Source of the DNA: Escherichia phage EI-SP-GF
Reading direction: 5' to 3' (one strand)
DNA length: 64,000 nucleotides
Sequence record: OR992645.1
The position numbers and the translations under genes were made by a program. How positions within the stretch are numbered: position 1 is the first letter of the stretch; each line of letters begins with the position of its first letter. Of the stretch, positions 49,037-58,642 are shown in pieces. The notes below the pieces were generated by a model. That model saw only the letters and a program-made list of their open reading frames with translations, was not told the DNA's origin and searched no databases.

Positions 49037-49063
49037 AGGGGCTTAAAGGCCCCTTTCTTTTTG
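49037..49063 (+). terminator. Rho-independent terminator
   Basis: GGGGC-ttaaag-GCCCC then TTTCTTTTT. Confidence 0.7.
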
Positions 49064-49670
49064 TCTGCTCTTCTCCTACCATAAACGGCCCTACCTGGCA
49101 AGTGGAATAATTGACTAGCCATCAATCCCACACACTGTACAAATATACATGGAAAATAACTATTGCATAATCTTTCATTGTGTGGTAGCAAGGCCATTTT
49201 TACCCGTTTTCTCTCCCAAAAGTGCACGTAATGCAGCTATTGCACAAATTTTAACCTGATGCATATCTCCAATATCTTGTCAACAACTAAAAATCTTTAT
49301 AAGTCATACACTTACACAGCATCGAAAGCGTGTTCTACGCGAAAAATCGAGTATAACTATAGCCGCCAGATCTCAGAATTCACGTACGCACGCCATTCTA
49401 TAGCCTGCAAAGTATTTATTCCAACCACAGAATAACGGAATAGTCAATACCTGCATAAAATAATTATTCGTGTAAACTGCATAACATAAATCAGCTCAGG
49501 TGTCAACATTTTTCGTAAACAGTCCGAAATTATCACGATGAGTTATCATAAACAGAGAAATCTTTAGTCGTCTAATGTTTACTGTACATTACTATACTGA
49601 CTGGAATCATTAGATGACTAAGAAAAAGATAAGAAATAATTAATAATGTAATTGTTTTACCTGTAACAAT

Positions 49671-49849
49671 AAGGCAACTATGCAAACGAATGGCATGGCG
49701 CGACGGAGTCGCGACATAATATAAAAGCAGTAACCATCACCCCCGTGATGGTTTTTCTGCAATCTATTATTCAGATCATAGTTGCCTTGTATTTAGTTAA
49801 TCATGACATAACAAGCAAGGCAACTGTAGATCTTCTAATAGTTGCCCTG
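49671..49849. repeat. Inverted repeats of AAGGCAACT / AGTTGCC(T/C)T (four half-sites) plus CGCGAC-gga-GTCGCG palindrome
   Basis: AAGGCAACT at 49671 and 49816; ATAGTTGCC at 49777 and 49838; GC palindrome at about 49698-49715. Confidence 0.65.
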
Positions 49850-49879
49850 CTTTTATATTATGTCATAGATTATTAACTT

Positions 49880-50110
49880 ATTAACTGTCAGCTTGTTGGC
49901 TGTTAGCTTGTCAATTGTTATCTTGTTAATTGTTTTCATGCAAACGAATGTCATGGCTTATCATCTCTGTGTAAACAGTTTGGGCGTAAACTATTCAGGC
50001 GTAAACAGTCTATGAGTAAACAGTGAGATATGGAATAGTAACAGCCGTTATTGTGTCATATTGTGCTGCAGTGCGTTATGTTGTGCCATATTGTGTCACT
50101 ATTATGTCAG
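49880..50110. repeat. Three short tandem-repeat families in non-coding DNA (CTTGTT-type, GTAAACAGT x4-5, ATATTGTG x3)
   Basis: GTAAACAGT copies between about 49971 and 50035; TTGTTAGCTTGT-like units 49885-49935; ATATTGTG units 50058-50095. Confidence 0.65.
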
Positions 50111-51557
50111 ACAAGTTTTTCCTCTCTTTGTCAAGTGCTGCATGAAAAATTTACAAACTGGTATGGTAGCATTTTTGCGGCCCTGTTTACATTCAGTTGT
50201 GTATGTATAACCCTTGTTGTGTGGGCGTTTAGACGTCTGGACGGTCAGAAGTCCGCAGGTTAATATCTAATCTATTGGCTGCTGACTATATCCCACACAA
50301 ATAGTAAGAAATATAATTGTTATATGCGTAAACAGTAACCCATGTTATCAATCCCTGTATGTATCGCCAGTGGTGCGCATAATGGGTATTATGTTAAATT
50401 GCCCGTAATGATAACCATTCTCACAATGATAGGTATTCTCATTCACTCCCACAAGATAGATTGCAAATGTTGTGCCACTGTGTGAACGGCCTGGCCTATT
50501 AATTTGCCTCACTGCCTCGATATTTGAGAATTATTATAAAAATGAGAAGTATTCCCATTCCGTCCGCCTGGCAGCACTCCAGTCGCTACCGGCTCCTGAC
50601 AGGGCAGCACTCCTGTAGGACAAGCACAAAATCGGGGCATAACTGCCTGTTCAGATATTTCTGGCTAACTCTTCAGGCCTGTGTGGGAAAAGCCAACCTC
50701 TCCGGCGGCGGGGAGGGGTCAATTAAAAAATTTAGGTGGTGTATGAAGCGCTCTTCAGGCAAGGTGTGTATTATGGGATGAAACCCTCTTCAGGTGATGA
50801 TATTTGTGGGTGTGATATTTGCTGGAAAGCCAGATATGACGGGACTCCCGGCGGGGCAGGGGTAGTACAGGCAGGGAAAATGTGAGGATGTGGTGGGAGT
50901 AAATTGATCAGGCAGGTAGGATATGGAATATGTTACAAGTATGTTAAATATGGAGGCAGGATATTTGTAAGATTTGTGTGTAAAATCAAAGACTTAAGTG
51001 GTGTTGTGGTATTTTCTATAAATAATTCAAGTTTAATAGGTAATATTTGTCTCTATCCGCTTTGTGTGGTAAACAGATTCTAATTGAATTGGTTTACAAG
51101 TGTATATAAAGTATACAAATTAAAGATATAAGAAACCCCCCTCCCCCTTCGGCTACCATTCACCTTTTCCTCTGACTGGTACTTAAACACTTATTCAGAC
51201 TCTTCAGGTTATCACCCATATACTATATGGCAGTGACTGGTGTCCTCCGGCCCCTCTTTCGTCACCCGTCCGCTTCGCCATGCTAATGCCATAGCTAAAG
51301 GTTCGGTTGTTCACCCTGTTCACTCAGGTGTATCTCCATACCCCTTCAAACCGAAGAGAACAGAAAACCCGAATTACTCGGTAAAAGAAAAGAGAAGAAC
51401 TTAATTTTATCAGGATAGGCAAGAATGTCAAGGGATGACTGCTCACTAAACAAGCAAACAGTCATGTGTGGTAGGTAAGTGATTGTGGTGGTGGAAAATT
51501 TAGTTGAAAGATGTGTTATAGTGCTTCCAGCACTTTAGCCGGGCGGCTAATTGTGTG

Positions 51558-55557: not shown

Positions 55558-55953
55558 TTACTGAAACAGTGCAGATAAATTACCTTCTGGTGGGAACTTA
55601 TCTGCCAGGAATGGGGTTAGAACAGTGGCCTTCTGAAGATCAGGGGTCCACTCATTGTTCAGAACATCCCAGTAGTACGCAATGTTGCTGTGTGGGTGAC
55701 GCATTACGAACTTTTTCCCTTCGTAGCCATCTGAAACCTCTACAGAAGAAATAACAACAGAATCTTCAAGGGTTTCTTCATAGAAAGATCCGCCTTCAAA
55801 TTTCCAACGAGATGCAAGAGCCCCTGCCTTGAACGCTGCAGATAACGGACTGTCGGCAAGAACATACATTTCTTGCACTCTGTCGCTGCGATCTTTGCTT
55901 CTTACGTTGTATACAGTATCTGAGCTATACTCAACACGGTATAGGCTTACCAT
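55558..55953 (-). CDS. Hypothetical protein, paralogue of 57760-58158
   Basis: Shares KKFVMRHPHSNIAYYWDVLNNEWTP with the other copy. Confidence 0.6.
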   Translation of the reverse strand: MVSLYRVEYSSDTVYNVRSKDRSDRVQEMYVLADSPLSAAFKAGALASRWKFEGGSFYEETLEDSVVISSVEVSDGYEGKKFVMRHPHSNIAYYWDVLNNEWTPDLQKATVLTPFLADKFPPEGNLSALFQ

Positions 55954-56553: not shown

Positions 56554-56644
56554 ATAGTATCACCTCTGGTAAGAGATTGGGATTCCTTTCCCACAAATAA
56601 TTACAAACCTTCCTTATCGAGGAAGCATGCTAATCCGAGCAGGA

Positions 56645-56914
56645 TTATTCCTCTACAATCTCATACACATCAGGAGTTACAATCAACTCTTCTCCGTTAC
56701 CCGGTGCAACAAACACCACCAAGCCTTCAGGTGTGTGCTTTTTAGCCATCTCGATAACATCTTCTCGCAGAGCTGGCTCCATCAGATCAAAGCCTTCACC
56801 CAGGGCATCACGAACCACCTTCATATAGTCCACTGGTTGTGCTTCAACAATCATGCCTTCAACCAGTCCACAGTTTTTGTCTGCCAGCTCAGTTTTGAAT
56901 AATTTAATTTTCAT
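56645..56914 (-). CDS. Small acidic protein
   Basis: 89 aa; MKIKLFK...YEIVEE. Confidence 0.55.
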   Translation of the reverse strand: MKIKLFKTELADKNCGLVEGMIVEAQPVDYMKVVRDALGEGFDLMEPALREDVIEMAKKHTPEGLVVFVAPGNGEELIVTPDVYEIVEE

Positions 56915-57051
56915 TTAGAGGTCTCCTCAATTATTTGATATTAATAGCCGTAACCTAACACATTAACTACAACTGCGATTGCAAACATAATTTCAAAGCA
57001 TGCAATCTCTACATTTGGGACTAATTTCTTAATCATGCCCATTGTAGCACC

Positions 57052-57369
57052 TCATTCTCCAAAGTCAATCTTTACTTTGCCTTTCCCCTTACCTTTCTTT
57101 CCACCACATTTAGCCAACTGACGTGCTGCAACATCTACCATACGGTCAGTTGCCTCGTAAGCATCACTGCCTTTAGCTTTGGCAATAACTTCTTTTCCGG
57201 AAGTGTCAAAAATGAACGCCATAACTTCCTGGTGATCATTTTCAACTTTTACACTCACACGTGCATAGTTGGCAGAGGGGTGCAAACGCTCCAGCTTAGA
57301 CATTTTGTGGGAAATGAAAGACACCATACCTTCAGTGATTTCTACGTTGCCAGTGATTTCAATTTGCAT
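57052..57369 (-). CDS. hpf: Ribosome hibernation promoting factor homologue (HPF/RaiA/YfiA family)
   Basis: MQIEITGNVEITEGM...KLERL...VSVKVE...GKEVIAKAKGSDAYEATDRMVDVAARQLAK aligns along its length with the E. coli HPF sequence as recalled; Lys/Gly-rich tail. Confidence 0.8.
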   Translation of the reverse strand: MQIEITGNVEITEGMVSFISHKMSKLERLHPSANYARVSVKVENDHQEVMAFIFDTSGKEVIAKAKGSDAYEATDRMVDVAARQLAKCGGKKGKGKGKVKIDFGE

Positions 57370-57416
57370 AACGTGTTCCTTTTAAAGAAGAGGGAACCAA
57401 ACCCTCTTTGAAAACA

Positions 57417-57445
57417 ATGATACTAAATCTGAAGCGTTGTGTCAA
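57417..57445 (-). promoter_or_regulatory. Sigma70-like promoter (TTGACA-17-TATCAT), minus strand, driving the HPF gene
   Basis: Reverse complement reads TTGACA, 17 nt, TATCAT; followed by hairpin AGAGGG-tttggtt-CCCTCT and AAAGGAAC RBS. Confidence 0.6.
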
Positions 57446-57451
57446 CAGTTT

Positions 57452-57742
57452 TTACAGCTTGTCGTCGATAGTTTTTAAAATATCCACAGCAAGATCTGCC
57501 ATTTTTCGAACATACTCTGCAAACTCAACAGGATCCTTGATCAAAGAATTCACAGGGTCGTACCCTAGAGCGTTCAAAATGGCTGCAGCATCTACAACCT
57601 TCTCATCATTTGCGAAGATCTCTCCATCAAACTTGTAGGTCCATTTTGAGTCAATCTTGGCAGAGAAGGATTGGTCAACGCTTGTTACACCATCCTTTTT
57701 AAACTCTCCGGTGTTATCAGTGTCCAGAACTAAATCCATCAT
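57452..57742 (-). CDS. Hypothetical protein
   Basis: 96 aa ORF. Confidence 0.55.
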   Translation of the reverse strand: MMDLVLDTDNTGEFKKDGVTSVDQSFSAKIDSKWTYKFDGEIFANDEKVVDAAAILNALGYDPVNSLIKDPVEFAEYVRKMADLAVDILKTIDDKL

Positions 57743-57759: not shown

Positions 57760-58158
57760 TCAGTCTAGCTTTTCTTCAACAACCCCATAACTTGGGGCAG
57801 AGTCAAGAGCTTTCTGGTTTAAAAGTGGCGTAGCAGAATCTGCAAACGGTGTCCAAGTTTTTGTTCTGGCATTCCAGTAATGCTTCACTCTGGAATCTGG
57901 ATGCACTATAACAAAAACTTTTTCACTTGTCAACACATTAATTTCTTCTACACCCTTGCTGATAATTTCTCCGTCATAGCCACCAATCTGGTATCCTTCG
58001 TACCAGGTTCTTGCATATGCATAGCCAGCCTGCCAGCATGCAGCCTCCTCCGAGGTGGAGACTACGTAGAAGTCTTTCTCAAATTCTGGGATACGCCCTT
58101 GCTTTACGCTCCAAGACCCGCGAATTTTCATTGTAACTTTGAACAGTTTATTTTTCAC
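57760..58158 (-). CDS. Hypothetical protein, paralogue of 55558-55953
   Basis: KVFVIVHPDSRVKHYWNARTKTWTP. Confidence 0.6.
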   Translation of the reverse strand: MKNKLFKVTMKIRGSWSVKQGRIPEFEKDFYVVSTSEEAACWQAGYAYARTWYEGYQIGGYDGEIISKGVEEINVLTSEKVFVIVHPDSRVKHYWNARTKTWTPFADSATPLLNQKALDSAPSYGVVEEKLD

Positions 58159-58170
58159 AACGGTTACCCC

Positions 58171-58425
58171 TCACAGCTCTACAATCTCTGCATCTGACCC
58201 TGCCCCAAAGGCATAATAGGATTCTTCCCCGAAATAATATTCCGGTGCACCAGCAGCGATCAGGTCTGATCCCAAGATAAACACCACGTTGTGGCCTACA
58301 TAACTGTGATGTTGCCGCACAGGATCATCCCACGGCAACCCTTCAAAGTATACCGCAGGAACGACCTTTCCATTCAGGAAGGATTGTCCCAAGTAGACGT
58401 TAGAATCAAGAATTTTAACCTTCAT
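58171..58425 (-). CDS. Small protein, DLIAAGA family member
   Basis: MKVKILDSNVYLGQ...GSDLIAAGAPE. Confidence 0.6.
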   Translation of the reverse strand: MKVKILDSNVYLGQSFLNGKVVPAVYFEGLPWDDPVRQHHSYVGHNVVFILGSDLIAAGAPEYYFGEESYYAFGAGSDAEIVEL

Positions 58426-58642
58426 TCTCGTCCTCCACTATCTCTACATCCTCACCAAGGGCAAAGTTGTAGGTCCACTGACTGTCAAAGCAGTCCTGAG
58501 ATGCACCAGCGGCAATAAGATCTGCACCTTTTATTTTTAAAAGGTCAGGATAATCTTCGTTAGGGATAGCGGTAAACACTTTCCCCACTAAGGGCTCCTG
58601 ACCAATATAGAAGCTTGAATCTAAAACTTTAACTTTCATCAA
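58415..58642 (-). CDS. Small protein, DLIAAGA family member
   Basis: MMKVKVLDSSFYIGQ...GADLIAAGASQ. Confidence 0.6.
   Translation of the reverse strand: MMKVKVLDSSFYIGQEPLVGKVFTAIPNEDYPDLLKIKGADLIAAGASQDCFDSQWTYNFALGEDVEIVEDENEG

Follow-up and report, generated by a model that had tools for sequence, protein, structure and literature searches.

A divergent, tail-bearing HPF-family protein conserved in Vequintaviruses, with a promoter and conserved 5′ stem-loop of its own

What might a coliphage gain from a ribosome hibernation factor of its own? The question is raised by a gene on the minus strand of a 64,000-nucleotide stretch of Escherichia phage EI-SP-GF (OR992645.1; referred to as the window), which runs from an ATG at 57369 to position 57052 and encodes a 105-amino-acid protein of the HPF/YfiA family, the homologue of rV5 gp144. 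One way for viruses to reprogramme host ribosomes is through phage-encoded translation factors, and ribosome hibernation bears on the infection of non-growing bacteria. The gene and its promoter are already known, having been annotated in 2013 and tested in 2019; the exception is a stem-loop in the 5′ untranslated region. Kropinski 2013 (PMC3606486) listed rV5 gp144 as “sigma 54 modulation factor; PF02482”, Mizuno 2019 (PMC6375957) catalogued rV5 HPF among virus-encoded ribosomal proteins, and Mathieu 2020 (PMC6969025) remarked on hpf in rV5-type phages. Our search of the literature found no functional study of the phage HPF after 2019 and no Vequintavirus transcriptome. What is new here is the purifying selection acting on the protein, the lack of any cellular relative above 44% identity, the distinct C-terminal tail, the conservation of the stem-loop, and the probable three-gene transcription unit. 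What remains of value in the locus is the puzzle of a divergent HPF with a tail, conserved in a single phage genus.

The protein is a short-HPF-type member of the family, nearer to HPF than to RaiA and an equivalog of neither. A sequence-only reading of this DNA had assigned it to the HPF/RaiA family and proposed a profile search, and the assignment holds up: Pfam Ribosomal_S30AE (PF02482) matches at 48.2 bits (E = 1.9e-12), past its gathering score of 23.7, and TIGR00741 (HPF/YfiA family) scores 46.7 against a cut-off of 40.9. The more specific profiles fail, with 55 bits against a cut-off of 125 for NF007780 (the gammaproteobacterial HPF equivalog) and 18.7 bits against 158 for NF007654 (the RaiA/YfiA equivalog). 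Among solved structures, the top sequence match is E. coli HPF (E = 7e-12), the chains of which align to phage residues 1-89 at E of about 1e-11 with about 40% identity, so that the claimed end-to-end alignment to bacterial HPF is also correct; RaiA chains in the PDB match at E = 0.17-0.2. An AlphaFold2 model built from a 20-sequence alignment has a mean pLDDT of 85.6, with block means of at least 90 up to residue 80 and a core above 90, and comprises the elements E2-7, H13-29, E33-43, E46-55, E60-67 and H70-92. In Foldseek, this model superposes on Vibrio cholerae HPF (4hei) with an rmsd of 0.9 Å and on ribosome-bound E. coli HPF (6h4n_x) with an rmsd of 1.1 Å at 41% identity, and the top 37 entries of the PDB list are all HPF, RaiA or pY chains.

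E. coli HPF (YhbH; 95 aa; PDB 2rql, 4v8h, 6h4n) is thus the best match by both sequence and structure. Both are single-domain proteins, and the phage keeps the helix 1 lysines and the helix 2 RQL motif. The phage protein differs in having 10 more residues, its tail being rich in Gly and Lys where HPF ends in KHKDKLKQH; in having a valine for K79 of HPF; and in being driven by a near-consensus sigma-70 phage promoter, whereas E. coli hpf belongs to the rpoN operon and is a stationary-phase-induced gene. E. coli RaiA (YfiA or protein Y, 113 aa) shares the fold and the expected site, and like the phage protein has a C-terminal extension beyond short-HPF length, but the similarity is much weaker (E = 0.17; 18.7 against 158 bits) and the tails are unrelated in sequence. 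Given this weak similarity and unrelated tail, the name “RaiA” that RefSeq gives to the phage V5 protein is not specifically supported. The N-terminal domain of the long HPFs of Gram-positive bacteria and of plastid PSRP1 has the same fold; long HPF, however, is a protein of about 180-190 aa with a C-terminal dimerisation domain, in place of which the 105-aa phage protein has only a disordered tail. The HPF of Cronobacter phage GAP32 and the members of phrog_8990 are likewise phage-encoded Ribosomal_S30AE proteins of large myoviruses, but they form a family separate from phrog_12469, to which the window protein is assigned (E = 2.4e-70, against 1.9e-6 for phrog_8990). Since the GAP32-type and rV5 HPFs fall on different branches (Mizuno 2019, PMC6375957), independent acquisition is implied.

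Within its own genus, the gene is uniform. Many Vequintavirus (rV5-like) coliphage genomes match the window region at 97-98% identity, and 117 Vequintavirus records encode the HPF protein at 95-100% identity, behind the same promoter and beside the same neighbours; rV5 gp144 and the other Vequintavirus HPFs are the same gene, with no substantive difference, this copy having T56 where rV5 has N56. Those records name it “sigma 54 modulation factor”, “ribosome hibernation factor”, “hpf” or “RaiA”; in others the HPF gene itself goes under “ATP-dependent protease La type I”. Beyond the genus, an exhaustive HMMER scan of 1.84 billion cluster representatives returned a single cluster with more than 50% identity, P0004 (103 aa, 64-65%), carried by uncultured Vequintavirus-like contigs of up to about 137 kb in which the gene order is the same. 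This sister lineage has no match in the GenBank phage collection that was searched; it was also seen on Logan metagenome contigs (L003-L006, up to about 126 kb), and in NCBI P0004 carries the label of an E. coli RaiA protein. The cellular relatives all stand at 44% identity or less, the nearest resembling enterobacterial short HPFs, and the smaller searches gave 2 loci (IMG/VR) and 5 proteins (a word-indexed protein search). Judged from these comparisons, the phage HPF is an old, isolated phage lineage and not a recent capture. Selection on the protein in the phage is strongly purifying, a sign of functional constraint: 15 Vequintavirus copies give a pN/pS of 0.052 over residues 1-87 and of 0.097 over the tail, and the comparison with the sister lineage, in which synonymous sites are saturated, gives a dN of 0.26. 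As a side observation, 18 “Campylobacter phage” records (UNVERIFIED; C. jejuni host, chicken) prove to be Vequintavirus genomes sharing over 95% identity with this E. coli phage, and their attribution to a C. jejuni host looks doubtful.

What such a protein would do in an infected cell has to be read from its fold and residues. The reading towards which we lean, if not strongly, is that the phage HPF reversibly occupies the mRNA/tRNA (decoding) channel of vacant host 30S/70S ribosomes; channel binding is the most likely activity because the HPF fold is present, most of the rRNA-contact residues are retained and purifying selection is strong. Residues K22, K25, R28, G58, D69, Y71, D75, R83 and K87 are all retained. 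In S. aureus HPF, K27, R30, K84 and R87 form conserved basic patches on both helices that are implicated in 16S rRNA contact, and binding was abolished only when all four were mutated (Basu & Yap 2016). Three of these four positions are basic in the phage protein (K25, R28 and R83, for S. aureus K27, R30 and R87). The fourth, in helix 2 (S. aureus K84, E. coli K79), is V80 in the phage and threonine in the sister lineage, and among cellular homologues it is lysine in 13 of 18 and V, T or Q in 4 of 18. Other substitutions are shared by both phage lineages, namely DAY for the usual DMY/DLY and ATD for AID/AVD, and DKL to DVA is a lineage-specific change at an otherwise conserved position. On the channel model, the phage protein would bind as HPF and RaiA do, at a site where those proteins sterically exclude mRNA, tRNA and initiation factors; it would park and shield ribosomes idled in the course of infection, and it would compete with host HPF and RaiA for one and the same site. 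Its disordered Lys/Gly-rich tail probably contributes non-specific contacts to rRNA.

Three things count against channel binding: the failed equivalog cut-offs, the V or T at the helix 2 basic position, and a published negative result. Mizuno 2019 (PMC6375957) expressed rV5 HPF from pBAD24 in E. coli NM522 and found its peptides in the crude extract; none were detected in the 70S and 100S fractions, and 100S levels were unaltered. The cells were harvested at OD600 = 1 (late-exponential) and the ribosomes pelleted through 500 mM NH4Cl, and the authors offered growth phase, salt stripping or true loss of binding as reasons. A lack of ribosome association is what the sequence-only reading had named as evidence against its proposal, and to this extent such evidence is already in print, albeit for late-exponential cells and salt-washed ribosomes. 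With that wash and those cells, the negative is not decisive. Short HPF converts RMF-induced 90S dimers to 100S, whereas rV5 HPF had no discernible effect on 100S under conditions in which RMF was likely scarce; in such cells RMF is not expected to be abundant, and little 100S was present at the outset. Reversible, salt-sensitive binding would reconcile the channel model with the 2019 result.

The tail is the feature by which the phage protein departs most visibly from short HPF, and it gives rise to a different reading. It spans residues 88-105 (CGGKKGKGKGKVKIDFGE; codons at 57055-57108, minus strand), carries a net charge of +4, and has a pLDDT of about 45-50 across roughly residues 90-105, below 50 for residues 91-98, and on account of this low pLDDT it is predicted to be disordered. 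Eighteen residues follow helix 2, against 8 in E. coli HPF. Among relatives, the length of the (GK)n run and the last two residues are variable; the tail of the sister lineage (KYSKSKGIDKRTAKWDY) is unrelated in sequence and likewise basic. The longer tail of RaiA, which works against 100S formation, is directed towards the RMF site and that of short HPF is not. One could therefore imagine, tentatively, an anti-hibernation factor that takes the HPF/RaiA site and, with its basic tail reaching the RMF site, blocks the dimerisation to 100S that RMF and HPF drive, so that host ribosomes stay as readily reactivated 70S particles for phage translation in slow-growing or stationary cells. A basic, disordered tail that is some 10 residues longer than in E. 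coli HPF and evolves under purifying selection would suit this idea, as would the RaiA precedent and the V or T that the two phage lineages have in place of S. aureus K84, one of a pair of residues needed for dimerisation in that species; a competition of this kind was put forward by Mizuno 2019 (PMC6375957). Set against it, the tail has no sequence similarity to that of RaiA, for whose equivalog profile the protein scores only 18.7 bits, and it differs in sequence between the two phage lineages. Moreover, the 100S peak was unaltered on expression, though there was little 100S to begin with (Mizuno 2019, PMC6375957), and an occupied channel would still stop translation until the protein departs. 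A bolder form of the proposal, which we regard as doubtful, would have the phage HPF work against host hibernation: exchanging rapidly at the HPF/RaiA site and occluding the RMF site with its Lys/Gly tail, it would prevent or dissolve 100S particles or shield the 3′ end of 16S rRNA from ribosome-targeting nucleases. Were this true, Vequintaviruses could exploit slow-growing gut E. coli. The conserved tail and the helix 2 substitution offer concrete handles on function.

A further alternative takes the 2019 result at face value: the HPF fold would have been kept, stable ribosome binding lost, and some other RNA or protein adopted as the target in infection. The sole experiment did give no ribosome association (Mizuno 2019, PMC6375957), the identity to cellular HPFs is about 40% (none above 44% among the 1.84 billion representatives, the sister phage lineage aside), both equivalog cut-offs are failed, and the lineage-specific changes DMY to DAY, AID to ATD and DKL to DVA could mark such a shift. 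But most of the rRNA-contact and core residues are kept, the same substitutions are present in a minority of cellular homologues, and the negative test employed growing cells and 500 mM NH4Cl washes, all of which leaves a change of target rather unlikely in our view. Finally, a host shut-off factor, made early and in excess for the global silencing of host ribosomes during takeover, would fit a strong sigma-70 promoter inside a long array of small early-type genes and the steric exclusion of mRNA, tRNA and initiation factors by HPF and RaiA, but is highly improbable, since phage translation would be inhibited equally, family members bind vacant and not translating ribosomes, and pBAD expression (overnight pre-culture, growth to OD600 = 1) left ribosome profiles unaltered (Mizuno 2019, PMC6375957).

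How is the gene expressed? The gene upstream of HPF stops at 57452, and the 82-nt gap that separates the two is among the few intergenic gaps. It reads, in order, AAACTG-TTGACA-(17 nt)-TATCAT-TGTTTTC-AAAGAGGG-TTTGGTT-CCCTCTT-CTTTAA-AAGGA-ACACGTT-ATG. All of the control elements that the sequence-only reading had described are found there: a -35 hexamer TTGACA at 57445-57440 (rV5 “P144”) and, after a 17-nt spacer, a -10 hexamer TATCAT at 57422-57417, together matching 11 of 12 sigma-70 consensus positions, and a Shine-Dalgarno sequence AAGGA at 57381-57377, 7 nt before the ATG, all on the minus strand. The promoter is identical to P144 as given in Table S4 of Kropinski 2013 (PMC3606486), TTGACACAACGCTTCAGATTTAGTATCAT. 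It is not alone in the window: the pattern TTGACA-N16-18-TANNAT occurs 17 times in the 64 kb, against 0.77 expected (about 20-fold), and none of 100 shuffles reaches 17, which identifies these promoter-like sites as a real, enriched class. The phage clearly uses host-type promoters of this class. In an alignment of the control region from 14 Vequintavirus variants (intergenic identity to the window 86-100%), TTGACA and its AAACTG context are invariant in all 14 and in the sister lineage as well. At -10, about half of the relatives have TATTAT and the others TATCAT, and the sister lineage has TGc-AATTAT, an extended -10 with the same spacing; AAGGA is kept in 13 of the 14 variants, the remaining one having AGAGGAG at that place.

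Between the promoter and the Shine-Dalgarno sequence lies the stem-loop (57408-57388, minus strand; AAGAGGG, a 7-nt loop and CCCTCTT, forming 7 bp), the 5′ UTR hairpin of the sequence-only reading, which begins 2-3 nt past the transcription start predicted near 57410-57408. Its energy by itself is not exceptional: dG is -9.9 kcal/mol (z = -1.07), 35 of 200 shuffles fold equally well, and it stands at the 15th percentile of random 45-nt windows. Its conservation is another matter, in that sequence and loop length change among the 14 Vequintavirus variants, and yet each folds into a stem-loop in this position (-5.3 to -11.7 kcal/mol). MAFFT put the indels at the 5′ end rather than in the loop, and the stem pairs were tabulated by anchoring both arms. 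Pairs 1-5 do not vary, except that one haplotype has an A.C mismatch at pair 4. At pair 6, four haplotypes have G-C, three the A.C mismatch and three a compensated A-T, and at pair 8 a T.T has become A-T in six, which thereby gain an extra closing pair. One double-sided compensation with its intermediates suggests selection for structure but, in sequences so closely related, falls short of proof. The sister lineage has a short 5′ UTR without the stem-loop.

What the stem-loop would do can be narrowed by elimination. An intrinsic terminator is rejected: the structure sits downstream of a promoter and is followed only by CTTT and then AAAA, the terminator scan did not flag it, and it is absent from the terminator list of Kropinski 2013 (PMC3606486). 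A DNA palindrome serving as a protein operator is unlikely, the spacing between the arms varying from 6 to 10 or more nt among the variants. Nor is a 5′ stem-loop a general trait of the promoters of this phage: of the window's 17 promoter-like sites, only 3-4 have one after them. The most economical reading is that it would act as a 5′-terminal stabiliser against 5′-end-dependent decay, the mRNA opening with a conserved stem-loop 2-3 nt from its predicted 5′ end; the unremarkable energy and the absence from the sister lineage count against such a role. Elsewhere in the window, the promoters rV5 P168 (47773-47830, plus strand) and P174 (45737-45800, plus strand) are directly followed by short GC-rich stem-loops (GGGGCAAAGGTGCCC and GGGAGCAACAAGCCCC), an arrangement of consensus promoter and then stem-loop that resembles the HPF upstream region. 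Scanning the entire window for Rfam families and tRNAs gave no match.

The same promoter probably serves more than HPF. The homologue of rV5 gp145, a 33-aa hydrophobic ORF (56941-57042, minus strand), follows 9 nt downstream of HPF, and an 89-aa acidic ORF, the homologue of rV5 gp146 (56645-56914, minus strand), follows 26 nt past that; since no terminator comes after HPF and the two ORFs are so close, the promoter probably drives three genes, with the 89-aa ORF the last. The first hairpin of terminator type after HPF is at 56609-56625 (minus strand; 6-bp stem with 3 G-C pairs, tail GTTTGTAATT), which is only a weak match to the consensus and is a possible end of the transcription unit. Host sigma-70 RNA polymerase would thus transcribe HPF first, followed by a 33-aa membrane peptide (gp145 is “membrane protein, 1 TMD” in Table S3 of Kropinski 2013, PMC3606486) and the acidic protein. 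The sequence-only reading took HPF for an independently expressed early gene, which is too strong a wording: the promoter stands, but single-gene expression is improbable, no terminator following and two ORFs lying close downstream, and early timing is at most presumed.

In the sister lineage, no gene is called at the position of the 33-aa ORF, where the gene calls leave an 83-nt gap; the 89-aa ORF is syntenic. In several GenBank Vequintavirus records (e.g. nomine, ECP26 and S127 BCL3), the 89-aa ORF is entered as “sigma 54 modulation factor”. Neither a Pfam match nor any similarity to the HPF protein was found for it, from which we conclude that the label is a propagated annotation error, and a second HPF paralogue at this place is rejected on the same grounds. 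A promoter-like site, TTGACT-16-TACAAT (10 of 12 positions, with TG), lies at 57041-57068 on the minus strand, across the final HPF codons and the 33-aa ORF's start codon, and PhagePromoter makes a prediction at the corresponding place in phage Gotham. If real, this site would drive the 89-aa gene, bypassing the 33-aa ORF. Among the small genes of the minus strand between 55200 and 58650, several pairs look paralogous by eye: the 84-aa ORF at 58171-58425 and the 75-aa ORF at 58415-58642 both start MKVK(I/V)LDS... and contain ...DLIAAGA..., and the 131-aa ORF at 55558-55953 and the 132-aa ORF at 57760-58158 have HP.S....YW......WTP in common. None of these four has a Pfam match.

At some distance from HPF, about 2.5 kb between convergent gene blocks (49050-51550) hold no convincing ORF, a region that Kropinski 2013 (PMC3606486) described as the “non-coding” region of rV5. 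It is AT-rich, with a GC fraction of 0.35-0.39 against about 0.44 in the flanks, and has iteron-like GTAAAC repeats every 15 bp at 49971-50021; GTAAACAGT recurs at 49515 and 50323, and 49713-49730 and 49847-49864 form a perfect 18-nt inverted repeat. By its sequence features, it looks like a candidate replication origin.
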